A stretch of DNA of 64,000 nt from Macrostomum lignano (lineage: Eukaryota). The DNA is taken from contig NIVC01000801.1 in assembly GCA_002269645.1 (NCBI GenBank), positions 59,484 through 123,483 of the forward strand, read 5' to 3'. Positions 32,411 to 60,640 of this stretch are shown here, piece by piece. The notes under the pieces were generated by a model. The model was not told the origin of the DNA. It saw only the letters and a program-made list of their open reading frames with translations, and made no database searches. The stretch's first letter is position 1. Every line of letters begins with the position of its first letter. The position numbers and the translations under genes are program-made.

Positions 32411-34007
32411 GTAGTAGTAAGTAGTAGTAGTAGTAAGAGAATTTGGCTCAGGCAATTAGCCTGTTTGGCCAATATATTATAGAGCTATGTATTTGGAAAA
32501 ATTTTCGAAATAGAAGTTTATAAAGACGATTTGACGACGATTTGCCGAATTATTGTAAAAGATAAAGTATTTGAAAGCGCGCCAGAATTTTTACGGTATT
32601 TTTGGACGAAAAGTGACGACTAACAACTAACAACGAGTATAAAATATTAATACAAAAATGAGTACAAATTACGAGATATAGCTTTAATTGCGAGATTACT
32701 TTGGTAAGCGAGTTTGTAAAAAAAAAAGATGTAGTATTTTTGAAAGCGCGTGATATTTCAAAGCGTGAAAAACGAACATGAACAATACTTCGAAAGAACT
32801 TTACGTTTAACGAATAACGATGATTTAAATATAGGGAATTAAAAAAGACAGTAAATGAATAAACAACTGAAAAGCGGATTTGTTAAACTGCTAATGTATC
32901 TGATTCAGTTTGTTTAACTGTTTTAGCTATTCATGACTTCATATATTTTAGCTACACCAGTGAGTTCTTTTCTGACTCTTTTTTCGTTTGTAGCATATCC
33001 TATCTTGTGTATTTGATTGCTATTTAAGAGGTATTGACAGAAGTATTTCTTCCTGATCTCTTCAGTTTGTGGACATTCGGTCAAGTAGTGTAGAATGTCA
33101 GAACCATTTCGCACTCCACACATTTTACATGGTTCTTGAGAAAAAAAGTTGGGTGTAATCTCGCATTTCAGTTTTAGGAGGGTTGTTAAGAATTTTTTGT
33201 TTCTAAATGTACATGGAAAGAAATCTGAAAGGTCGGGCCTGCAGATTTTTTTGTAGAGATAGGCGTTTTTGTAGAGTTTAATATGTTGCTGATTCTCTAG
33301 CTTTTGGCTAAGTTCTCTTTCTCTGTGTATCTTGAGGTGCTTTTTCACTAGGTATTTCTCGTTATTAAAGCTTTGGGAAATTTTATCTTCAGTTAGTGCT
33401 TTTAGGTCTATACTTTCTAGTTTCTTTAGTACATTCATTTTCCATGGATTTTTTTGGCCGGTGTTTGAGTAGAAAATTTCTAGAGTCGTTTGGCAGAGTT
33501 TTTTGTGTCTAATCTTCAGCCAGTAGATGAGGTAGGATTTAGCGATTCGTTGAGAGATTGGAGTAAGCTCAAGTTCTGATGATATCACACTGTAGCTAGC
33601 AAATTTTGGTAGATTGAGGAGATATTTGTAGAATTTCAGCTGAATATTATCAATAGCTTTTGTATCAGACATGGTAGCCAGAGGGCCCCAGAGCTCACAA
33701 CCGTAAGTGATAACGGGGGTAACAAGCGCGTCGAATAGTCTGCGAATGAGTGTGATGTCTAGGGACGTATTCTTTACCCTATGGAGTAGGGAAAACATAG
33801 CTGTATATCCCTGCTTAGTTTGGTGTTCAATACATTTTTTAAAGCTGTTTTTTGGTTCAAAAATAATTCCCAGGTATTTAAATTCATTTACTTCCTCTAT
33901 TTCTTGGTTGTCGTAGTATATTTTTGTAGCAATGCTTTCTGTGTCGTTTTTTTGTCTGGTATTGCCCTGCATAAACTTTGTTTTGCTTGCATTTACTTTC
34001 AAGTAAT
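32411..34007 (-). mobile_element. LINE (non-LTR retrotransposon), 3' half: RT C-terminus, CCHC finger, 3' UTR and possible (TAC)n tail
   Basis: ORF 32923-34035: LKVNASKTKFM, FKYLGI, LFDALVTPVITYGCELWG, CKMC...HYLTEC. GTA-repeat at 32411-32436 is the putative tail. Confidence 0.85.
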
Positions 34008-35063
34008 TGATGTGTTCCTTATTACCAGTCCTCAACTGTAATCAAGGAACAATCACTTCTAGCTCTGTAGCTAGGCAACCCAGTAATCAAATGAAGGTAT
34101 TCAATTACCTTGATCCGGATTCCTTGATATCGTTCTTGAGTCGTTCGGTTCTGTAGATCTCTTAGACTTTTAGACGTCTTCAGATGTCGATCGGGTCCGA
34201 GTTTCCTTTTCTCTCCTTTCGAAGTATTTCCGGCCGGTATCTGTAGTGCGGACCAATGGGAAGCTTCCAAATTAACAATGGGTACCCTGCGCCAAATCTG
34301 CGGTTTAATATAAGCCTACTCCTTCTAGCAGTGCCTCTATGCACTCTAGGTATAGCTCCGGAAACCACTGATAGTCTTCTAAGACCTATCAGGGGCAGTC
34401 CTTCTGGAGACTGCAACCAGTGGAGTCTAAACAGACTCAAGAGTCTCAACAGACTCAAATAAACTCAAGTCTCAATAGACTTGAGCGAGACGTCTCAACC
34501 AACGGGCGCAAATGAGTAAGGCTTACCGCAAGAACTCGTCCACGACGCGAGTTTCTTCAGGAAGGCTTCACTAGAGCTTCCTCTTCGGAGCTTCTCTCTC
34601 TTGGAGATTTCTTGGCTCCGGGTCCGTTCCGGACCACTTGTATTTATAGGCAAATGGACCCCCATGAGGTCACGTGAGTCCAACTCTTCAGCTGTCAAAA
34701 AGGTCACGGTTTGGTTGCTGTCAAACTTGGCAGGGTAGAAAGTTATTCCATTGGTTCAGTGTAAAAGCGCGTGATTGGTCATCGCATTCGAGTTATTTTT
34801 AGTTACATTTGATTGGGTCACGTGCGTACAGTTGAATGATGCATCTTTCCTGGGGTTTGCGTTTGACAAGTACAGGTTACACGTGATTGGGTGATTTCTA
34901 AATTTAACATGCACAAGGTCTCTCTCTTCCTATTGGTTAGTCAGAATAAACTTATAATTCAAAGCATACCTTTATTCATGCTCTTCAACTTACTACTGAA
35001 TAAAATGTATGAGTAGTACATTAACACTTTTATGTCTTCTTACGGGAGGTAGAACACTCTACA
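34008..35063 (-). repeat. 3' LTR (1056 bp)
   Basis: Direct repeat of 43784-44839 (offset 9776); only one mismatch noticed by eye (C34783 vs T44559). Confidence 0.97.
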
Positions 35064-35281
35064 AAATCTCCCATGTTTACAAAAAACTCGTCCCGAGTTT
35101 TAAATAGAGGATTGAAACGCGTAAAAAGTTCGAGCATGTCTTTATAAAAATCTTTTGTCACAAGTGTTACAGGTATTTTGTAATGGGTAGTTAAGAGCGT
35201 TAGTTATAAAAGTTATTTAAAGGTAAGTATACGCATGCAAATAAAATGTTTTTGGTTACAGTATTGACATGTGCGCCAAGA

Positions 35282-35494
35282 CTAACAATAGGCGCACTGC
35301 CGCAAACTTCTTCTACCTATCGGGCAATTCTGCCAGAGCTGAATATAATGTGAGTCGCCTAAATATTGTCCGCATATGCGATGTCTGTTTTCACAAATAA
35401 TTGGTGGCTTGACAGCCAAGTCATCAGTTAAACATATTGGGCATTCGTAGAGTTGCTGTAATTGGGGCGCCTGTTTGGACAGTGCGTTGCCCAT
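35282..35494 (-). CDS. Small accessory ORF (70 aa): N-myristoylation motif plus degenerate SINA-type RING finger
   Basis: MGNALS (MGxxxS), Kozak ACAATGG; CPIC-x12-C-x3-H-x2-C-x2-[Y]-x12-CPI[G]R. Confidence 0.6.
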   Translation of the reverse strand: MGNALSKQAPQLQQLYECPICLTDDLAVKPPIICENRHRICGQYLGDSHYIQLWQNCPIGRRSLRQCAYC

Positions 35495-35605
35495 TGTCGT
35501 CGTCGCTTGAAGTTTGAAGTCGCTCAGATTAGTCGCCTCTTACGACAAGCTTGCGAAGCTGTAGAGCTATTCTGACCCGGTCTCTACACGGGTTATTTTC
35601 GCAAC

Positions 35606-38600
35606 TTAACGAGGTCGCAGATTATAGCCGTGCGGCTGGCTCTCGTTCGTTGTTTGAGTCTCCTCGTGTTTCGTTGCGATGTGGCGGTTTGTCGAACGCG
35701 TGCGGTCGGCATTGTCAAGTGACGGTAGAAATGTCGCCGTGTCAGTGTTGATCTTCTTTAGTCGATGAATGTGCACGTAGAATTGGTGCTGATGAGGATC
35801 TTGCACATTGGCCAGGCGTGCCGTTGTCGGTGACGTTAGTTGGACCACTCGATATGGTCCTTTGTACTTCTGTGCGTGTTTGTGCGTCTGTTGCGGCGGA
35901 TAGTGCAGGTAGACGATGTCGCCGGCTGTCAGAGTTGTCGATCTCGTGTCGGTGCCGGTGGTTAGAGCCACCTGATTGTCGATGTTGTGCTTGGCTACTT
36001 TCCATGCGAGGTGTAGTTGCGTGACGAACTTTTGAATGGACGTCGGGACTTCCACATATTGCGATGGTAGTAGTTGCTGTGCCAATAGGTTTGGCGGCTG
36101 GAAGTCTCGCCCAAACATTAGAAAGAATGGCGTATTATCCGTTGATCGATGAATAGCGCTGTTGTAGGCCATTGTTACTGCTTGCAGATAGATGATCCAG
36201 TCGTCTGGTTGTTGATGCGCGAAGTGTGTAATCATCTCGTGTAGGTTGCGGTGAAACCTTTCAACCATGTTCGCCTTCGGATTGTAGGTCGATGTGTAGA
36301 TCTGCGTGATGTTGAGGATCTTCACCACTTGCTGAAAGAGTTGAGACGTAAACTGCGATCCATTGTCCGATGTGAGGTTCTTTGTCGTACCGTACTTGCA
36401 GATGATGTCGTTGAAGAAACCCATTGCCACTGTCTGAGCTGTGATGTCCGGTATTGGTATGGCAATAGCAAACTTTGAGAAAATGTCCAAGGCGGTTAGG
36501 ATGTAGGTGTAGGCTATGCCATGGAGACAGCTCGGTGGCAGCGGTCCGGTGATGTCGATGCTGAGACAGTCCATAGTTGTTGACTTCGGTATCGATTGTA
36601 GCTGTGGTTTCTGTCGTCGCCCTGTCTTTGATGCTGCGCATGAGTGGCAATTGTTGCAATACTGTTTGATGTCGCCATGCATGCTTGGCCAAAAGTAGTA
36701 TTGCTCCACTCTTGCAATGGTTTTGGCTGCCGACAGGTGTCCAGCGAGTGGGTTGTCGTGCAGCTCGTTGAGAATGGCCTGCCTAAACGAATATGGCATG
36801 TAGATTCTAGGTTTGTTGTCACTCATCCAGTAGAGTCGTGACTTGTTGATTGTTAAATGTTGTCGCTGCTTGCGCAGGAATTTTCGTTCCACGGGGCTGA
36901 GCTTGATGTCCTTGTCGTTGTTTTTAACTGCTATGTAGAAGTTGTCGTGTTCAGTCTCATCCACCAATTCCTTGATGTTAGGGATTGGATGAATGGCGTT
37001 GACTTCGTAGGCTCTTGACAGAGCGTCCGCAGCCTTGTTAGTAATTCCTGGTTTGTAGACCAGCTTGTAGTTGTAGTCCTGGATCTTGAGCGTCATCCTG
37101 ATGAGTCGGTTATTTGTTTGTCCTTTTGTAGTTACGACGTAAGTCAGCGGTGCGTGATCTGTGCGTACTATCGTCGGTATTGGAGAACCATAGATGTAGT
37201 AATGGAACTGTCGTAGGGCGAACAAGACTCCTAGTAGCTCGCGTTCCGTAGCTGACCACTTTGTTTCATTTGGCTTGAGTGCTCGACTGACGTAGGCGAT
37301 AGGTCGCTCCTTCTTGTCCTCGGTTTCCTGTAGTAGGACGGCTCCGAGTCCCGTTCCTGAGGCGTCTGTCTCGATGATGAAGGGTTTGTCGAAGTCCGGA
37401 TGCTGTAGTAGTGCGTCTGATGTCAGTTGTCGTTTGATTTCGTCGAAACTCTCTTGCTGCTTTTGCGTCCAGTTCTCTCGTTTCCACTTGTCGAATTTGA
37501 GCAGGTCGTACAGCGGTTTTGCTGTCTTCGCGAAGTTCGGTAAAAACTTTCGGAAGTATTGCGCTAGTCCAAGAAACGATTGGACCTTCGTAATGCTAGT
37601 TGGCGTAGGAAACTTTTTTACTTTCTCCACATTGTCTGGGTCCGGTGAGATTCCTTTGGCTGTCACTTGGTGTCCTAGGTAACGTACGTTGTCTCGGAAG
37701 AATTTGCATTTCGTCGGTTGTAGCTTAAGACCTTGGCGTTGAATGAGCGCTAGGGCCTTCTCCGTAGCTTCATAGAGTCGTTGGAAGTCTTCTCCGTAGG
37801 CCAAGATGTCGTCGACATAGTGCAGCAGGTTTGTGCATCCTGCAAGCATGTATGCCGTTAGTCGGCTCATTGTTGCTGGGCTGTTGCTGAGTCCCATTGG
37901 CGATCGGTTGTACTCGTAGACTTGTCCATTGTAGGTCTTAAAAGCCGTGTACTGTCGTGATTCTTTCTCGATTTCAATTTGCCAAAATCCATGACGTAGG
38001 TCGAACACCGTGAACAATTTTGCTGTGTTGAGCTTTGCTAGTAGCTCGGAGATCTTTGGTAGGCTTTGCTGATCCGTCGGTATGTACTTGTTTAGCAGTC
38101 TGAAGTCGCATACAAGTCGTCTTTCGTTAGTCTCCTTCTTTTGTACCAGTAGGCACGGTGAGGAATAGGCTGAAATTGCTTTGCTGATGATGCCGTGCTT
38201 TAGCATTTTATCAATAATTTCGTCAAAGTGTTGTTGCAGATGCTTGGCAATCGGGTACGGCTTGCACTGAATTGGTTCAGTGTGCGGTAGAAGCTTGATT
38301 TCTTGTTTAATGTCTTTAGCGCGTCCGATGTCGTAATCATGATGGCAGAAGGCTTCGTTGTACTTCCACAACAGTTGTCGAACTTTCTTCTTTTGCTGTT
38401 CCGTGATCGGGCTGTCGTCCAAGTTGATTTTCTTTTGAAATTCTTCTTCTGTTAGTCGTGGAGTCGTGTGCTCAATCAGCATAACTGATGCTTGAGTGTT
38501 GAGATGACCGATGCACATTCCTTGTCGTAGATGAACCATTTCCGCGTTCGGGTTGAAGATTTGTACTGGCAGCTGCTTATCTTTCGCCACCAGCACTAGT

Positions 38601-40231
38601 GCCGTAGGCATCATGATTTGATGTTTTGCCGTGACTCTCCTGTGTGGATCAAATATCATTGCTTCATCTGCCGCGCTGGTCGCTTTCGCTCTGACCCAGC
38701 ATGCACTTTCAGGCTGGATGATGACATCTTGCTGTAAGGTAACTTTTGGTAGTACTCGAATCTGGTTAATCAGTGGTTGCTCCACCGTGTCAATCCTAAA
38801 CGTTTGCTTGTTGAAGTCGAAGGTCAATGGTAGTCGAAGCTGCTTGAACGTGTCGATTCCAACAATGACGTCTTGGTTTGGTAGTTTGTCGATGATGTAC
38901 GTCGGGACCGTCAGATGTTTATTAGCAATTTTCAAGTCGATATCTGCTTTTCCTAGGATATTGAGTGAATGTCCTCCTGCTCCTGCAACTGCGATTGCTG
39001 CTGGTCGTACCGCGAGTCGTAGCTTGTTGCATAATTGTTGCGAGATGACGGTGATAGAGCTGCCTGAATCCAGTAGTGCTCGACATGGCAAGTTGTTGAC
39101 AATGACCTGAGCCATTGCCTTGCCAATCTCAGCGTGTAGCGTGCAGACGTAGTTTTCTGGCCATTTCGGCTCGTGTTGATCCTGCTGATAGCCAGGTGGC
39201 TGCATTCTCGGTGCTGTTGGTGTTGTCGGAATCGATGGATACATTCGCGTTGATGGTGTCGGCTGTCCTTGAGTTTCTTGACGTGCATCCTCTGTCAATT
39301 CCAAGTTGTTGTCTTCTTCCCTTGGTATCTTCTGCATGATGGCGTTCACTGTTCGTTTCGCTGTGGGACAAGTGTTGCTGAAGCATCGTACTATCGACGA
39401 GATGATAAAGATTGCCGTAACTACCCATACAACACAGGCACTGTAGAAGATGAAGCCTTGATATAGGCTGCCTCTTCCGTTAAGCAGCTCTAAAAAGCTG
39501 TTGGTCCAAAACGATTGGATGGCGTTGTCCATAGACACTAGGACCGGGAAACTGCCTGTGCCTGTTCCTTTATTCTTTCGTGTGAAGAGTTGACGAATCA
39601 TCTTCCGTTGAGTGATGAACGCTTGCAAGAAGTCGTTGATGGTCCATCCGGGTGTTATCTCATCGAGTTGGATATCGGCGAATGGCGTGTACTTCGTTCT
39701 GTTAAACCGTATCTTCAGATCGTCCATATCGTACGTTTCATCGACAATCACTTCTGGTTCCGTGATATTCGCTGTCGTTCCTGTCGTTTTAATGACGTGT
39801 AGTGCATCGTCCAGTTGATAGTAGTTTGCTGCAGTGGTGCAGGGTCTTGGTATGGCTGTGCCAACGATGATGTTGTGTACCGTGTCCAAGAATCCTTGTA
39901 TTCTTTTGCCTTCGTAGAATGCTTCAATTCTCGGCTTGTCGTAGCAAGTTGTTGAAGTGTTCGACGGCAAGATGTTGAAGTGCTGTATCGGCGTGCACTT
40001 GTATATCAGGAGATGTCCATATATCGGAATTGCCAGAACCTCTCTCATTCCCGTGATCTTGCGAAATGTCATCGTAGGGTTGACATAGTAGTTCTGTCTT
40101 GCGTAGTTCAAGTTGATTGCGTGCATTTTGCAAGTTAGCTGAACCAGTGACCGATGTAAGTGGTTAAGCTGGTTATGCAGGTTGTGATCCAGCGCCGTGA
40201 TCTTTGCTGACAGCAGTCGGTTTGACACCAA
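35606..40231 (-). CDS. pol: Env C-terminal half (ectodomain, TM, tail) fused in frame to Pol (aspartic protease, RT, RNase H, integrase)
   Basis: TM ~39457-39389; LLDSGS at 39070; YSSPCLLV, RLVCDFR, YVDD at 37819-37808; TDASGTGLGAVL; HDNPLAGH..C..C; DITGP, SDNGSQF, VERFH; GPY; terminal YNLRPR. The frame is open upstream to ~40309. Confidence 0.95.
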   Translation of the reverse strand: MVSNRLLSAKITALDHNLHNQLNHLHRSLVQLTCKMHAINLNYARQNYYVNPTMTFRKITGMREVLAIPIYGHLLIYKCTPIQHFNILPSNTSTTCYDKPRIEAFYEGKRIQGFLDTVHNIIVGTAIPRPCTTAANYYQLDDALHVIKTTGTTANITEPEVIVDETYDMDDLKIRFNRTKYTPFADIQLDEITPGWTINDFLQAFITQRKMIRQLFTRKNKGTGTGSFPVLVSMDNAIQSFWTNSFLELLNGRGSLYQGFIFYSACVVWVVTAIFIISSIVRCFSNTCPTAKRTVNAIMQKIPREEDNNLELTEDARQETQGQPTPSTRMYPSIPTTPTAPRMQPPGYQQDQHEPKWPENYVCTLHAEIGKAMAQVIVNNLPCRALLDSGSSITVISQQLCNKLRLAVRPAAIAVAGAGGHSLNILGKADIDLKIANKHLTVPTYIIDKLPNQDVIVGIDTFKQLRLPLTFDFNKQTFRIDTVEQPLINQIRVLPKVTLQQDVIIQPESACWVRAKATSAADEAMIFDPHRRVTAKHQIMMPTALVLVAKDKQLPVQIFNPNAEMVHLRQGMCIGHLNTQASVMLIEHTTPRLTEEEFQKKINLDDSPITEQQKKKVRQLLWKYNEAFCHHDYDIGRAKDIKQEIKLLPHTEPIQCKPYPIAKHLQQHFDEIIDKMLKHGIISKAISAYSSPCLLVQKKETNERRLVCDFRLLNKYIPTDQQSLPKISELLAKLNTAKLFTVFDLRHGFWQIEIEKESRQYTAFKTYNGQVYEYNRSPMGLSNSPATMSRLTAYMLAGCTNLLHYVDDILAYGEDFQRLYEATEKALALIQRQGLKLQPTKCKFFRDNVRYLGHQVTAKGISPDPDNVEKVKKFPTPTSITKVQSFLGLAQYFRKFLPNFAKTAKPLYDLLKFDKWKRENWTQKQQESFDEIKRQLTSDALLQHPDFDKPFIIETDASGTGLGAVLLQETEDKKERPIAYVSRALKPNETKWSATERELLGVLFALRQFHYYIYGSPIPTIVRTDHAPLTYVVTTKGQTNNRLIRMTLKIQDYNYKLVYKPGITNKAADALSRAYEVNAIHPIPNIKELVDETEHDNFYIAVKNNDKDIKLSPVERKFLRKQRQHLTINKSRLYWMSDNKPRIYMPYSFRQAILNELHDNPLAGHLSAAKTIARVEQYYFWPSMHGDIKQYCNNCHSCAASKTGRRQKPQLQSIPKSTTMDCLSIDITGPLPPSCLHGIAYTYILTALDIFSKFAIAIPIPDITAQTVAMGFFNDIICKYGTTKNLTSDNGSQFTSQLFQQVVKILNITQIYTSTYNPKANMVERFHRNLHEMITHFAHQQPDDWIIYLQAVTMAYNSAIHRSTDNTPFFLMFGRDFQPPNLLAQQLLPSQYVEVPTSIQKFVTQLHLAWKVAKHNIDNQVALTTGTDTRSTTLTAGDIVYLHYPPQQTHKHAQKYKGPYRVVQLTSPTTARLANVQDPHQHQFYVHIHRLKKINTDTATFLPSLDNADRTRSTNRHIATKHEETQTTNESQPHGYNLRPR

Positions 40232-40284
40232 TCGTGGACGTACTATGTCGCGTCGTTGTCTCTCTTGTTGCTGATATGTTCCGT

Positions 40285-41772
40285 TTATGATTGCCGGAAG
40301 GTTTGTTTGTCACCATCCTTCACGTAGACTGGTATTTCTTGTTCTGAAATGAATAGCGTCTTGTCCGTATCTTTGCATTTGAGTTCCTGTTCGACCGGCT
40401 TCTTTTGAAACGTCAAGGCCAAGTCTCCTGCTTTTGCCAAAAATGTATTCGACAGTAGTCCTCCTTCCACTGTGTGATACTTTTGAAGCTTGCAGTCAAT
40501 TTCCGGCTCTACTTCCCATGCGAAGTAATATTGTCGTGCCTTGTACGGTTCCTCATAGTGTGAGTGTGCTCTGTGCTCAATCTGCCATCGATAGTTTTGA
40601 TGATATGTTGGACTTAGTGGTAGACTGTGTAATTCTTCCTTCCGTAGAATTGGTGTTGGACACCATCCTTCACTGTATCGACATTCGCTTAGTTGCAGCT
40701 GTAGCGATTCCATTTTCTCGTATGGATTGTAGTAGAATGGAATATTTCTGATCAAGTAGCTGTTGCGTGCCACATATTCTTTCCATTTTCCGAAGAAGTG
40801 AATGTATCGACCGTTGGCTGAATTCTTTGTTCTGAACAGCTGTGCGTTGCCGACCTTCTCATCTGGTTCCAGTTCACCATCCTTTGAAAACAGTGTTTGG
40901 TTCCATTGTAGGCATTCCGCGTGCGACACATGTAGCTCATGTTGTTTAAATCGGATCCGATTCCATTGTCCGCGCCAAACTTTTTCCACTAGGTGCTTGT
41001 CTCTGAAGCACACTATTCCGTGTTGTCGATGCTTTTTGATGTTAGCCTTGTAGAGATCGAGTGTAATCTTCTTTGGCTTCGTCTGGTTTGTCTTGAAGTA
41101 GCTGCATTTGATGTCGGTTGGTATCTTGTAGATCATCGGTTGGATATGCGCATCCGTTGGACAGATCATTGGTTTTTCCGTTGCCGTTGCTTTGGCGACT
41201 ACTGCTATCAGTAGTATCATGATGATCCAGAATAGCCAGTTTTTCCACTTCTTGGACCTTGCCGTTGTCTTTGCTGGCATTGGCTGCGATCGCCATTCGT
41301 TGTCTTCCATGTCCGCATCGTATTCTTTCGGTTGCTCTATTGGCTGTTTCAGGCGGAAGGGTTCTGATTCGCTTTGCTTTTTGGTTATTTCAGTATCTTC
41401 GTCTGCCGCTTCTTCTGATGTTTCAGTTGTTTCACTCCATTGCGTTTGGTATTTTCTCTCTGTCTTGTAGTCGACTGTTTGAATGTAGGCTTCACCATTT
41501 CGTTTGTATCGGATCTCGTAGCATTCGTCGCTGTCGGAACTCGGCTTTTCTTTCCTCTGTTCTTTTTCCATGTCTTCATCTTTCCATTGTATTTCGTAGC
41601 CTTGATCGCTGTCGGAACTTAGATTTTCCGCTCTCAGTTCTTCCTGCATTCCTTCTTCGGTTCGGTATCCGTTCGTGTCATCGCGCACCTCGCAGTCGTG
41701 ATCGTTGCCGTAACTCATACATTCTTCTTCTTTTATTTCTTTGTCTTTCATGCTTATTTTGTCGTCATCCAC
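40285..41772 (-). CDS. Acidic spacer, internal signal sequence and N-terminal half of a class III-like viral fusion glycoprotein
   Basis: Hydrophobic WLFWIIMILLIAVV (~41238-41191), then a Cys-containing ectodomain (PMICPT, GIVC, VSHAEC, ECRYSEGWC, DCKL, ISEQ) with NQT sequons. Confidence 0.7.
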   Translation of the reverse strand: MDDDKISMKDKEIKEEECMSYGNDHDCEVRDDTNGYRTEEGMQEELRAENLSSDSDQGYEIQWKDEDMEKEQRKEKPSSDSDECYEIRYKRNGEAYIQTVDYKTERKYQTQWSETTETSEEAADEDTEITKKQSESEPFRLKQPIEQPKEYDADMEDNEWRSQPMPAKTTARSKKWKNWLFWIIMILLIAVVAKATATEKPMICPTDAHIQPMIYKIPTDIKCSYFKTNQTKPKKITLDLYKANIKKHRQHGIVCFRDKHLVEKVWRGQWNRIRFKQHELHVSHAECLQWNQTLFSKDGELEPDEKVGNAQLFRTKNSANGRYIHFFGKWKEYVARNSYLIRNIPFYYNPYEKMESLQLQLSECRYSEGWCPTPILRKEELHSLPLSPTYHQNYRWQIEHRAHSHYEEPYKARQYYFAWEVEPEIDCKLQKYHTVEGGLLSNTFLAKAGDLALTFQKKPVEQELKCKDTDKTLFISEQEIPVYVKDGDKQTFRQS

Positions 41773-41977
41773 TGTTGTCGATTCATAGTTGTTCTCTTCG
41801 TCGGTCCCCCTCTTTTCTTCGTTGCCGGTATCGCTCTCCGCCTCCTCCCTTTTTTGTGATTTACTTTCTTCCTGTTTTCTCTGCTGTCTCCGGTGGTCTC
41901 TTTTAATTCGATCATTTCGGTTTCATTTGCCTCTTCTGTCTTGTCAGTGTTGTCCTCGTGCGTTGTCTTCTTTTCGA

Positions 41978-43066
41978 TCAAGCTGATGTCATTTCCAAGT
42001 CGTCAATTGTGAACACTTGCTGTTCTTGCTGCTCATTTTCCGGTGTGTACGTGATGGCATTCGCGTATCGTGGCATTGCTTGCGTTGGCTGTCTTTGTGT
42101 GTACCTGGCGTTGCGTGGCCTGTAGCTATTATTTCTGAAGCGGCCGTCATTTCCGAAGCGGCCATCATTTCCGGAGCGGTCATTATTTCCGAAGCGTCTA
42201 TCATTTCCGAAGCGTCTCATGCCTTGTTGTTGGCGACTTTGATACTGCTGCCATGGTTTCTGCGGCTTTTGATTGTTAAATGTCTGTCGCGGCTTGTCGT
42301 ATCTTGTTGACCAATGAGGACAATTAATCTGATAATGTCCTTCTTGTCCGCAGTAGTAACATCTGGCGGAGGCTTGTTCATTTCGTCTTTTTTGTTCGGC
42401 GATAGCAGCTGTCTGGTGCTGCATTAACTTGTTTAATTGCTGCGTCAGTTTCTGCACTTCATTGTTGCCTGTCGTCATTAATGGGGCACTGGCTTCCCAT
42501 TGCATTCCGCACCGCAAAAGGTCTTCTTCGGTTTCGATATTTTCACGCAAAAGTCTATCCCGAAGTGACGGCTGTGCGTTGTTTATTACGTGCAGGATGA
42601 GGTTTTGTTCGCGATCCATCAATCGTTGTCTTTCTCTGGCGGCCAATTCTGCCGCTCCCAGTGGCGGTTGGTCCGCAGCTTGCAGCGGTGGCTGATGCAG
42701 TGCTTTAATTATCTGGCGGATATCGTCCACAAAGGCGAGGAAGGATTCCGTTGCTTGCATCCTTCTGTTATGTAACTTGTGCAGCAGCACTGATCTGTTT
42801 GTGCCGCAACGGTTGAAATGCGCGCGCAGTTGAATGATTAGTGCTGGATAATTTTGCTGTGTTGCCGCGTCCAGCTTGCCGTAAATTTCTCGCGCAGTAC
42901 CTTGGAGAAGAGGTGGCAGCAGCTGTGCCTTCTCTGGATTTTGTAGGTTGTATTCCCTACATACCAGGTCGAAATGGTCGACAAATGTGTTAAAATCTTT
43001 CTCCATCGCGAAGGTATCGACCGTTTCTTTGATGTCTCTGTGTACCGTTGGATTGCGCCGCGCCAT
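41978..43066 (-). CDS. gag: Gag (capsid-like region plus CCHC nucleocapsid knuckle)
   Basis: DFNTFVDHFDLVC...LLQGTAREIY; CYYCGQEGHYQINC; RFGND repeats. Confidence 0.9.
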   Translation of the reverse strand: MARRNPTVHRDIKETVDTFAMEKDFNTFVDHFDLVCREYNLQNPEKAQLLPPLLQGTAREIYGKLDAATQQNYPALIIQLRAHFNRCGTNRSVLLHKLHNRRMQATESFLAFVDDIRQIIKALHQPPLQAADQPPLGAAELAARERQRLMDREQNLILHVINNAQPSLRDRLLRENIETEEDLLRCGMQWEASAPLMTTGNNEVQKLTQQLNKLMQHQTAAIAEQKRRNEQASARCYYCGQEGHYQINCPHWSTRYDKPRQTFNNQKPQKPWQQYQSRQQQGMRRFGNDRRFGNNDRSGNDGRFGNDGRFRNNSYRPRNARYTQRQPTQAMPRYANAITYTPENEQQEQQVFTIDDLEMTSA

Positions 43067-43761
43067 GTTGTTGATAGGATAGAACGGTAGTTCAAGATCT
43101 GGATCGATTTGTAACGGATCGTCCAGTGTGGTGTTTGCCTCGGAATAAACTTCGACTGTAACGAATTGCCTTGTGGTGTCGATTTGTTATTCGCTGGCCT
43201 CGAATGCGGTGTGGCTTGCTGCCACTGGTTGTCCTCAAATGAACTTGTTCTGTTCGCTTGCTGATTTCGCACTTATGCGGCGTCCCGCAAAGTGTATCTT
43301 CAAGTTGAAGTGGACTTTGTCTTCTTGCTTTGCAAAGGCTTTTTTCTCTTCTTTGACTTTCCTTCTTTTGTCAATTAACTCCGCTCTCCACGAAGTTTCA
43401 ATTAATTTCGGTTTTGTTTTAGTTTTTGTGCCGATAAAATGTTTCAGTTATTTTTTTGTTTGTTTTGCTTCGACGATTCTTTTATTTTCGGTTTGTTTTC
43501 AGTGTACCGATGAAGTTAATTTCGGTTTATTTTAAACTCACACTTGCTCGAGCTCGTTAAAACAAAAATTTACACGCGTGCTCAGACTGTACTCAAAATT
43601 GACAGGTGCTCAAACCTGTACACCAAAATTTTTACTCGAGTTTCAAAACGTTCGGACTTCAAAAGTGTTAACTCTAACACGTGCGCGCAAAATTAATGAA
43701 GTCGCTCTTTCGTCACGTTACAATAGCTTGATCAGGGCTATTGCTCAAAGTTTGAGTAGTG

Positions 43762-43781
43762 CCGAGAGGGCGAGATCACCA
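43762..43781 (-). other. Putative primer-binding site
   Basis: TGGTGATCTCGCCCTCTCGG begins 2 nt inside the 5' LTR boundary; the cognate tRNA was not identified. Confidence 0.55.
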
Positions 43782-43783
43782 AT

Positions 43784-44839
43784 TGATGTGTTCCTTATTA
43801 CCAGTCCTCAACTGTAATCAAGGAACAATCACTTCTAGCTCTGTAGCTAGGCAACCCAGTAATCAAATGAAGGTATTCAATTACCTTGATCCGGATTCCT
43901 TGATATCGTTCTTGAGTCGTTCGGTTCTGTAGATCTCTTAGACTTTTAGACGTCTTCAGATGTCGATCGGGTCCGAGTTTCCTTTTCTCTCCTTTCGAAG
44001 TATTTCCGGCCGGTATCTGTAGTGCGGACCAATGGGAAGCTTCCAAATTAACAATGGGTACCCTGCGCCAAATCTGCGGTTTAATATAAGCCTACTCCTT
44101 CTAGCAGTGCCTCTATGCACTCTAGGTATAGCTCCGGAAACCACTGATAGTCTTCTAAGACCTATCAGGGGCAGTCCTTCTGGAGACTGCAACCAGTGGA
44201 GTCTAAACAGACTCAAGAGTCTCAACAGACTCAAATAAACTCAAGTCTCAATAGACTTGAGCGAGACGTCTCAACCAACGGGCGCAAATGAGTAAGGCTT
44301 ACCGCAAGAACTCGTCCACGACGCGAGTTTCTTCAGGAAGGCTTCACTAGAGCTTCCTCTTCGGAGCTTCTCTCTCTTGGAGATTTCTTGGCTCCGGGTC
44401 CGTTCCGGACCACTTGTATTTATAGGCAAATGGACCCCCATGAGGTCACGTGAGTCCAACTCTTCAGCTGTCAAAAAGGTCACGGTTTGGTTGCTGTCAA
44501 ACTTGGCAGGGTAGAAAGTTATTCCATTGGTTCAGTGTAAAAGCGCGTGATTGGTCATTGCATTCGAGTTATTTTTAGTTACATTTGATTGGGTCACGTG
44601 CGTACAGTTGAATGATGCATCTTTCCTGGGGTTTGCGTTTGACAAGTACAGGTTACACGTGATTGGGTGATTTCTAAATTTAACATGCACAAGGTCTCTC
44701 TCTTCCTATTGGTTAGTCAGAATAAACTTATAATTCAAAGCATACCTTTATTCATGCTCTTCAACTTACTACTGAATAAAATGTATGAGTAGTACATTAA
44801 CACTTTTATGTCTTCTTACGGGAGGTAGAACACTCTACA
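43784..44839 (-). repeat. 5' LTR (1056 bp)
   Basis: TGTAGAG...ACATCA on the - strand, flanked by TSD. Confidence 0.97.
44417..44712 (-). promoter_or_regulatory. LTR U3 promoter: TATA box with upstream CCAAT boxes and CACGTG E-boxes
   Basis: TATAAATA at 44424-44417; CCAAT (- strand) at 44526, 44550, 44588, 44662, 44708; CACGTG at 44447, 44595, 44656. Confidence 0.55.
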
Positions 44840-45795
44840 TAATTTTGCTTGCAGTAATTTTCCATAGTCGTAAATGTGTCTTGAAGTTCGTCTTTGTTTT
44901 TAGCTAGAATGGCTTGATCGTCTGCAAAGAGTAGGATGAGTGGGAAAGCAGATCTCGTAAGAGCGCCTAGTGCTAGAGAGTTCAAGATATTCAACAATGT
45001 CGTCAATATATAGTGCAAAAAAGAAGGTAGAGAGGGTTGCCTTGAAGAACACCTTTAGATATTGGGATTGGCTGGGTTTCATCATCATCATCATCTTTTT
45101 TTAGAATGAAGCATGCAGGCATTTTTATGCATGTTCTTGATAAGTTCCGTCATTATATTTGACCTTTAATACCCTGGTTATCCGTTTTGTGCCAAAGGGT
45201 CGGTTGATTAAGCTATCGAAGGCTTTTTCATAGTCAACAAATCCAATAAAGAGTTCTTCTTTGTTGTAGATGGATTGGTTAATAATGTTGTAAAGATTAA
45301 AACATTGGTCAATTGTACTGTGATTGGGCTTGAAACCGTATTGGTATTTTGATATAAGATTGTTTGCGTATGCTAGGTTTTCGAGTCTGGATTTAATAAT
45401 TTGGCAAAAGAGCTTGCCAAGAATTGGTTGAATGCAGATTCCTCTGTAATTGTTGGGGTCGGCACTGCTGCCTTTGTTGTTATAAATCGGATGAAGTTTA
45501 TTTGTTATCCAACTAGTTGGGAAGGTTCCTTGTTTGAGTGCTTCGTTGAAAAGTGAGCATAGGAGGTCAGCAAGTTCGTTCTCGAGGTATTTGAGTGTTT
45601 CTACATATACTTTATCGTGCCCAGGTGCTTTGTCAGTTTTGAGCTTTTTAATATGTTTTATAACTTCTTCTTTGGTGAATGGGGCATTGAAAACCTCTAA
45701 ATCAGCCAGAATAGGGTTGTCAAGGTGAAGATTGTATGATAGTCTAATGCTGCTGTCTTGTTCAGTTACAAGATTTTGAAAGTGTATGACGAACG
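44840..45795 (-). mobile_element. LINE 5' half (RT N-terminal domains, 5'-truncated, frameshifted)
   Basis: - strand reads KAPGHDK, NYRGICI..ILGKLF, QYGFKP, FVDYEKAFDS, GVLQG, LYIDDI, LFADD. It rejoins the 3' half in frame (MENYCKQNYLKVN) once the LTR element and one TSD copy are removed. Confidence 0.9.
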
Positions 45796-46705
45796 TAGCA
45801 AGGAGTTATTTTGGCAATTGTAAAATTTACGTACTGGCAAGCTATGTTTTTAGCTATAAGTTATTGAATTTTTTAAACAGTTTTTGAGTAGAATTAGACA
45901 ACGATAACGAAATTTACAATAGATAAAAAAGTACCTTACTTGTTTTAAAAATTGTTATAACAGCTGATTGTTTTCATAGAACATTCAAAATTTTAATTTC
46001 GAAGGTTTTTATTATGACGGTGCTTTTTTATGAGTAAGTGACTGTGAGATTGAGGCAACTGATTTTTCAATACTTAGGACATTCAAATATTCTGTAATCA
46101 TATTCATAGATGATATAGATAAGATGTTTAGAAATAACAAAAATCCTGCTTTCATAGCTCGGAACGCTTAGTTTACTATTTAAAGCCGAAATATTCTAGC
46201 GCCCAGGCCTACAGAAAGGAAATCACGCGCGTGATGAATCATAAATAGCTTTAAAAATTTGTGTTTGCAGTTAACTAAAAAGTTTTTATAATTTGCAAAA
46301 ACTGATGTTTCCCTTATTTTCAAAATATATTGAATTGATATAATGATATTCGAGTTCAAGTACTTTCGCTTGCTTCTACTAGTACTATATAATATAATCT
46401 ACCTAGTGCTGAAAAATTGCATGCAGGACTTCAGTCAGTTATATATGAATGATTATAATGTCATAGCTACTTTTCTTTATTATAAAATACAAAATAGGCC
46501 TATAGTATGGCCTTGCTAGCATTGGCTGTTTTATAGAATAGCCTAGTGGCTATAGTGTTACCCATACCATAGACATAGTCAGGAAGATAGCATTTTTCAC
46601 GGAAAATTCTGGCACAAAAGGAGGTTAGACGTGTGCCACATTGGCACTAGCGCATTTTGCTACAAGTTTGCAAGGGAGAAAAATCTAGCATAATATGGGT
46701 ATAGT

Positions 46706-51579: not shown

Positions 51580-60640
<9,061 letters not shown>

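Follow-up and report, generated by a model that had tools for sequence, protein, structure and literature searches.

The question raised by this locus is what a 70-codon open reading frame, lying between pol and the 3' LTR of a retroelement, represents in a 64,000-nucleotide stretch of Macrostomum lignano DNA (the window). A preliminary description had likened its architecture to that of arenavirus Z, with a matrix or budding factor or a captured ubiquitin-ligase module as its possible roles. Minus-strand 35282-35494 was found to translate to a 70-aa product beginning MGNALS, with A at -3 and G at +4 (a strong start context). The frame starts 112 nt past the end of pol (stop at 35606), with the 3' LTR (34008-35063) downstream of it, and its presence and position confirm the first description. 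The Tyr (TAT) and Gly (GGT) codons reported where two Cys are expected are present at codons 44 and 60, leaving both RING1 ligand positions non-Cys and two of the eight ligands gone, and codon 71 is TAG; a third CxxC lies within the frame and further zinc ligands stand directly past its stop. In base shuffles of a 542-nt stretch, an ATG frame of at least 60 aa arose in 2,463 of 20,000 cases, and one also having an MGxxx[S/T] start in 24 of 20,000. The 70-aa product alone gave no significant Pfam RING match (best E 0.2), and its matches in the PDB were weak (TRAF6, E 0.044; SIAH1, E 0.14).

The frame is held by an LTR element at 34008-44839 on the minus strand, in which the following features were recognised, genes A and B being the accessory cassette genes described below.

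34008..35063, minus strand: 3' LTR, differing from the 5' LTR at 1 base; the element is flanked on each side by a 4-bp target-site duplication
35104..35232, minus strand: about 130 nt without alignment to full-cassette copies; the rest of gene A and all of gene B are missing
35233..35281, minus strand: gene A remnant past the stop (part of RING2); similarity to full-cassette copies stops at 35233
35282..35494, minus strand: the 70 codons read as truncated gene A, with MGxxxS[K] start, RING1, the first CxxC of RING2 and a stop at codon 71
35531..35593, minus strand: conserved non-coding element in the spacer that separates pol from gene A, with pseudoknot-like pairing, a YAG end and then a short hairpin
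35606..40309, minus strand: open frame encoding the C-terminal portion of the env-like region, in which there is a hydrophobic segment, followed by protease, RT, RNase H and integrase
40285..41922, minus strand: linker between gag and env plus the N-terminal portion of the env-like region; in the window copy this stretch is in a different frame from those on either side
41978..43066, minus strand: gag, with MARR start and CCHC knuckle
43769..43780, minus strand: primer-binding site, a 12-mer identical to that given for Mlig_errantivirus_2
43784..44839, minus strand: 5' LTR, 1056 bp, with a TATA at 44424 and a conserved GTAAG donor-like site at 44302

The element runs in the order gag, env-like region, protease, RT, RNase H, integrase, accessory cassette and 3' LTR, and it has the features of an errantivirus, namely the Ty3/gypsy PR-RT-RH-IN order, LTRs, a primer-binding site, a target-site duplication and an env-like region between gag and pol. 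It is young, of the Ty3/gypsy type with GAG-ENV-POL order, and a relative of the Macrostomum lignano element Mlig_errantivirus_2, with which it shares the primer-binding 12-mer; a UniRef label also places it beside that element. The start of gag agrees with the earlier observation that Gag has no Gly2 site. The env-like region, which has two hydrophobic segments between gag and protease, found no match by sequence in the PDB or Pfam; the env of Mlig_errantivirus_2 is of the HSV gB type (Chary and Hayashi, PMC13524379 supplementary file 2), and assignment to that type rests on the table given there. In three relatives gag, env and pol form one uninterrupted frame of about 2,500 codons, as judged from overlapping coordinates. 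The same frame is broken in the window copy near 41990, 41870 and 40295, though its LTRs differ at 1 of 1056 bases, and these breaks may reflect genuine decay or a fault of the assembly.

A DNA search of the genome, in which 40 places were scored among 105 candidates, indicated that the 70-codon frame is almost certainly a relic of a longer gene, a truncated gene A. At 81-83% DNA identity, more divergent subfamilies have a gene A of 222 aa and, behind it, a paralogue of about 210 aa, gene B, and where the window has 35104..35232 one full copy has approximately 1.3 kb, with similarity restarting at 35103; about 1.2 kb, gene B included, is missing from the window subfamily. Twenty-two of the 40 scored places were 96-100% identical to the window, and among these the stop at codon 71 was present in 20, the other 2 being frameshifted. 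Decay of this copy had been suspected at the outset, and the shared stop and lost ligands bear this out: the window frame is a pseudogene stump. Of the two missing Cys, which the preliminary description proposed to look for in other copies, that at position 44 is present in 6 window-type copies, with Tyr in 15, and position 60 is non-Cys in 21 of 21 readable copies; the ligand at position 57 is lost in 2 copies. Variation among these copies (5 synonymous and 9 non-synonymous variants) was indistinguishable from neutral (p 0.19, at low power).

A second, independent truncated subfamily (L039-L046, L104-L106) was seen in which gene A ends at about 144 codons, gene B is lacking and the integrase background is different; it accounted for more than 20 places among 150 matches. 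A copy associated with Mlig_errantivirus_2 (G000:C995), 89.5% identical to the window over 3.2 kb, likewise has a truncated gene A and no gene B. Sequence comparison thus indicates that the cassette has been lost at least twice, and the integrases of the truncated subfamilies are near-identical to those of full-cassette copies. As an element with truncated gene A is given as intact and present in 16 copies in the available part of PMC13524379, and as the truncated subfamilies are numerous, the cassette appears to be dispensable in cis. Near-identical integrases (window versus L127, dS 0.05; also L037) were observed to accompany gene A versions that differ at dS of about 0.9-1.0, which points to swapping of cassettes by recombination. 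On contigs C2121, C1130, C87 and C3033 (L031-L038, L047, L048) partial elements form nested or tandem groups enriched in pieces of cassette plus LTR, two successive cassettes being present in some; these groups resemble transposon-dense clusters.

The intact gene A has a SINA-like RING1, a second RING-like repeat (RING2) and a helical domain of about 110 aa. Uninterrupted, near-full-length family-1 gene A was found at 17 places among 150 matches, a figure that is not a copy number because the assembly is described as redundant (available text of PMC12801592). A related element family, family 2 (RT about 80% and gag 56-65% identical), has a cassette in the corresponding position; it comprises two or three genes, or as many as about seven paralogue-like stretches that are not all intact. 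These longest arrays, with several stretches broken, were seen at L117, L118, L139 and L140. Intact subfamilies have 2-3 paralogues, each of about 200-220 aa and each with RING1, the RING-like repeat and the helical domain. Alignment of 24 mostly intact, diverse proteins, picked from 81 distinct frames and 18-80% identical to the first, showed all 16 ligand positions kept in at least 22 of the 24, and an invariant Trp-Pro in the C-terminal part. In the tree, first-position A genes split from downstream B genes (100/99), with unnamed Logan proteins on long branches on both sides.

Pairwise dN/dS was 0.11-0.17 for family-1 A (5 of 6 pairs, one being saturated), 0.19-0.31 for B (6 of 6 pairs) and 0.16-0.28 for family-2 A, with integrase at 0.04-0.09 for comparison (whole-gene p ≤2.2e-9, from non-independent pairs). 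Intact A and B genes are under purifying selection. The dN/dS comparison proposed in the preliminary description returned selection for the long genes and, for the 70-codon form, variation that at low power did not differ from neutral.

RING folds are very likely to be present in the cassette proteins. The hallmarks of an active RING E3 are eight zinc ligands, a Pro after ligand 7 and an Arg after ligand 8, the last two being E2-activating features. RING1 of the intact genes has these residues, with Arg after the last ligand in 24/24 aligned proteins and Pro after ligand 7 in 23/24, and the window copy, with two ligands lost, does not; at the matching position of RING2, Arg was found in 0/24. 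Position 20 has Cys in place of the usual hydrophobic residue in four family-1 B proteins. A family profile matched RING1B, SIAH1 and TRIM21 in the PDB through RING1 (E 3e-5 to 1e-4), whilst RING2 matches to RINGs were weak (E 0.025 or worse). Sina_RING (PF21362) matched 22 of the 24 members at E≤0.05 (best 1.3e-9), with ten cassette places above the Pfam cut-off and five proteins, scanned singly, under it. The SINA-like character first noticed in the short frame is a property of the family; a RING match and conservation in sister subfamilies were both obtained with the longer gene, and the 70-aa product by itself gave no significant Pfam match.

A confident AlphaFold model (pLDDT 89.9) had a helical C-terminal domain, which was all-helical in two models. 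Foldseek returned no match at E≤0.001, and the rows, mostly RING ligases and with a best VIA Z of 4.5, included none that was significant; arenavirus Z was not among the matches listed. For the helical domain there was no usable Atlas match; the best PDB profile match had E 0.15, the best VIA Z was 5.7, among unrelated helical proteins, and the best viral Foldseek match had E 0.68. The domain is without a known match in these searches, which does not in itself make its fold new. A single-sequence search with gene A found no homologue among 28 candidates. A profile search of 1.84 billion representatives gave 217 matches, nearly all RING-only, and among the 12 sequences inspected those of family type comprised a UniRef model and five unnamed proteins from Logan; with a second profile search there were 2 matches.

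The Gly2 motif that prompted the comparison with arenavirus Z was present in 4 of the 24 aligned proteins, all of them gene A of family 1. All four gene A subfamilies of family 1 retain the MGxxxS[K/R] start at a dS of at least 0.8 between them; it is absent from family-2 A and from all B proteins, and its carriers are nested among relatives without it. This distribution suggests that the Gly2 start was a later addition to one branch. Intact A is somewhat more likely than not to be myristoylated.

Separate spliced mRNAs are a likely means of expression for the cassette genes. A structured element ending in YAG was found upstream of every gene A examined, and in the window its YAG, at 35559, is a candidate acceptor for splicing. 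Both families have a GTAAG resembling a splice donor at a distance of 115-133 nt from the TATA of the LTR. Of 15 downstream paralogues, 9 have a CAG no more than 5 nt ahead of the ATG and 6 are without it, the background being 4.3%; this count overstates independence because the 15 paralogues are related. In a UniRef gene model, both junctions that were checked connect a GTAAG donor in an LTR with the CACAG|ATG of a B gene, the entry being a chimeric gene model and a prediction. Of 24 runs, none of them recorded as RNA, four contig runs were compared with a full-cassette copy, and three that are presumed to be RNA cover the cassette region; among the 15 joints listed out of 21, none linked the LTR by GT-AG. 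The possibility that pol is read through into gene A was considered and rejected, as the window has three in-frame stops and the length and frame of the spacer vary. The spacer element was seen in both families as 17 distinct variants, with an invariant 4-bp stem and a second stem of 6-7 bp, in a search whose pattern was composed after the motif had been seen. Two compensatory changes were noted among three sequence types (pairs 6-7 read by eye), and the element had no meaningful Rfam match.

From these comparisons our main reading, to which we give a probability of roughly 0.6, is that the cassette encodes separately expressed accessory proteins, RING ubiquitin-ligase-like and dispensable in cis; the proteins probably have ubiquitin-ligase activity. 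Of the two roles suggested at first, the ubiquitin-ligase module is accordingly the better, and the matrix or budding factor is not upheld, the conserved form having 222 aa and two RINGs. Each gene would be translated from its own mRNA, the LTR-leader donor being spliced to an acceptor just before the start codon. RING1 would recruit host E2-ubiquitin and RING2 would support it like the second half of a RING dimer; an Arg that is constant in RING1 and missing from RING2 fits such an active RING with a supporting repeat, given the general biochemistry of RINGs. The divergent helical domain would pick the substrate, and the motif gained by family-1 gene A would place that protein on membranes. 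The job of these proteins would likely be to remove or retag host proteins that restrict the element, and we tentatively infer that the substrate may be a host-defence protein. If the products act in trans, subfamilies lacking the cassette, the window's included, could still spread. We hold as doubtful the fullest version, of an invertebrate endogenous retrovirus lineage with an expanding set of stand-alone RING ligases, separately spliced and bearing new helical substrate domains, that destroy host anti-transposon factors in trans; if true, a Ty3/gypsy element would have an accessory arsenal like that of complex retroviruses, on which cassette-less subfamilies such as the window's would free-ride.

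The cassette proteins might instead be non-catalytic RING scaffolds or decoys whose binding to host E2s, to SIAH-like partners or to nucleic acid has a blocking or regulatory effect and involves no ubiquitin transfer, a reading that would suit the weak structural matches to ligases, the conserved Arg missing from RING2 and the precedent of arenavirus Z, a viral RING acting mainly through protein binding (available text of PMC3497041). We consider this unlikely, as the invariant Arg of RING1 and the conserved Pro and hydrophobic positions, held across paralogues of 18-40% identity, fit catalysis better. Less probable still is a ligase for particle assembly, in which A, bound to membranes, helps budding or Env traffic by ubiquitinating either an ESCRT adaptor or the Gag or Env of the element itself: the retention of MGxxxS[K/R] across diverged family-1 A subfamilies, the env-like region and a Gag without Gly2 are in its favour, but the motif is missing from family-2 A and every B gene, and the many divergent paralogues are easier to reconcile with several targets in the host than with a single one in the element.

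The reading of a small, myristoylated RING protein that acts in the matrix or in budding, as arenavirus Z does, and replaces the absent Gag myristate was suggested by the Gly2/Ser6 motif, single RING and small size of the window copy, and by the MARR start of Gag. The small size is however the result of truncation, and the architectural likeness holds for the window's truncated form only, since the conserved protein has 222 aa, two RING-like repeats and a helical domain. According to the available parts of PMC3497041, arenavirus Z is the matrix protein, with a single RING, late domains at its C terminus and a Gly2 that is universal among its members, and none of this holds for the cassette family. 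PTAP/PSAP, PPxY or YPxnL late-domain motifs were found in 0 of 8 A-type proteins, with one YPxxxL-like match in 1 of 16 B-type proteins, and the Gly2 motif is missing in family 2. Arenavirus Z was absent from the 58 PDB matches of the profile (to E 1) and the 11 single-sequence matches (to E 10, 70-aa query), and no Z-type family was among the 12 Pfam families in the scan of 24 members. Elements with truncated gene A are given as intact and multi-copy, which would not be compatible with a required matrix protein. The Z-like reading is largely refuted and very improbable. Equally improbable is a newly functional 70-aa micropeptide of the window subfamily, such as a dominant-negative membrane-bound RING, because the 70-codon frame shared by nearly all window-type copies is simply inherited among near-identical sequences, which have lost ligands at positions 60, 44 and 57 and whose variants, at low power, do not depart from neutrality.

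The preferred reading, of accessory ligase-like proteins, was compared with known systems. RING1 spacing and sequence are common to SINA/SIAH (PF21362) and the cassette proteins. In SIAH the RING is followed by zinc fingers and a TRAF-like beta substrate-binding domain. The cassette proteins instead have a second RING-like repeat and an all-helical C-terminal domain, with no SIAH-type Pfam match. Only the RING is common to both, and capture of an intact SIAH gene was rejected.

The nearest precedent in kind is Burro/GYPSM1, giant planarian gypsy elements in which env is placed in frame between gag and pol and which encode additional domains linked to ubiquitination and apoptosis (AIR1-like, MATH/TRAF, BIR and BCL2-like; PMC6431247, as far as its text was available), which are alike in being flatworm LTR elements, in env placement and in having ubiquitination-related extras. 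Those domains lie within a huge polyprotein or an upstream ORF, whereas the cassette is a row of duplicated small genes that stand on their own 3' of integrase and belong to a single tandem-RING family. RNF125 (232 aa) and RNF157 are myristoylated cellular RING ligases (PMC10357820, text available in part), and RNF125, which combines an N-terminal myristoylation motif with a RING at similar size, gave a weak Foldseek row (E 0.048); both serve as analogies only, homology being shown no further than the RING. The RING E3s of large DNA viruses (herpesvirus ICP0, baculovirus PE38/CG30, giant-virus RING proteins) are also stand-alone viral RING proteins and fill the weak rows of the viral fold and Atlas searches, all non-significant and mostly RING-sized, but the carrier of the cassette is a retroelement. 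Rotifer LTR elements capture other types of ORF3, with RING, ubiquitin and ligase unmentioned in the available part of PMC5408684.

No description of the cassette came up in the literature searched, and an earlier M. lignano LTR classification, Repbase or GyDB may annotate it. The main text of PMC13524379, so far as available, has no whole-word RING, zinc finger or additional ORF, a term search of its 7 supplements gave no RING, zinc, ORF4 or accessory, and there is no mention of RING in the available text parts and supplement 1 of PMC12801592. What is found here is a selected, duplicated tandem-RING accessory cassette in a flatworm errantivirus lineage, without a description found in that literature. 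Transmission mechanisms of env-carrying elements remain elusive for most (PMC13524379 discussion, in the part available), and Macrostomum lignano is an experimental animal with transgenesis (available text of PMC12801592). A conserved, duplicated and repeatedly lost ligase-like cassette offers a handle on how env-carrying retrotransposons persist against host silencing outside insects, and its substrates could name host factors that restrict these elements. With the cassette comes an additional protein family whose helical domain is unmatched; the 70-aa frame itself is only a relic.

Some further observations concern the surroundings of the elements. The window's element is apparently inserted in a LINE-like RT frame, the two parts of which flank it at 32923-34003 and 44844-46300 (minus strand); this frame was judged from translations, and its 349-aa part had no Pfam match. 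Positions 1-30000 and 53000-60000 of the window are dense minisatellite arrays with units of 12-26 nt, yielding many spurious long ORFs. Beside a family-2 cassette, at L122:7841-9901, there is a more distant gag and env-like element, 26-28% identical to that of the window, which is a third GAG-ENV-POL family.
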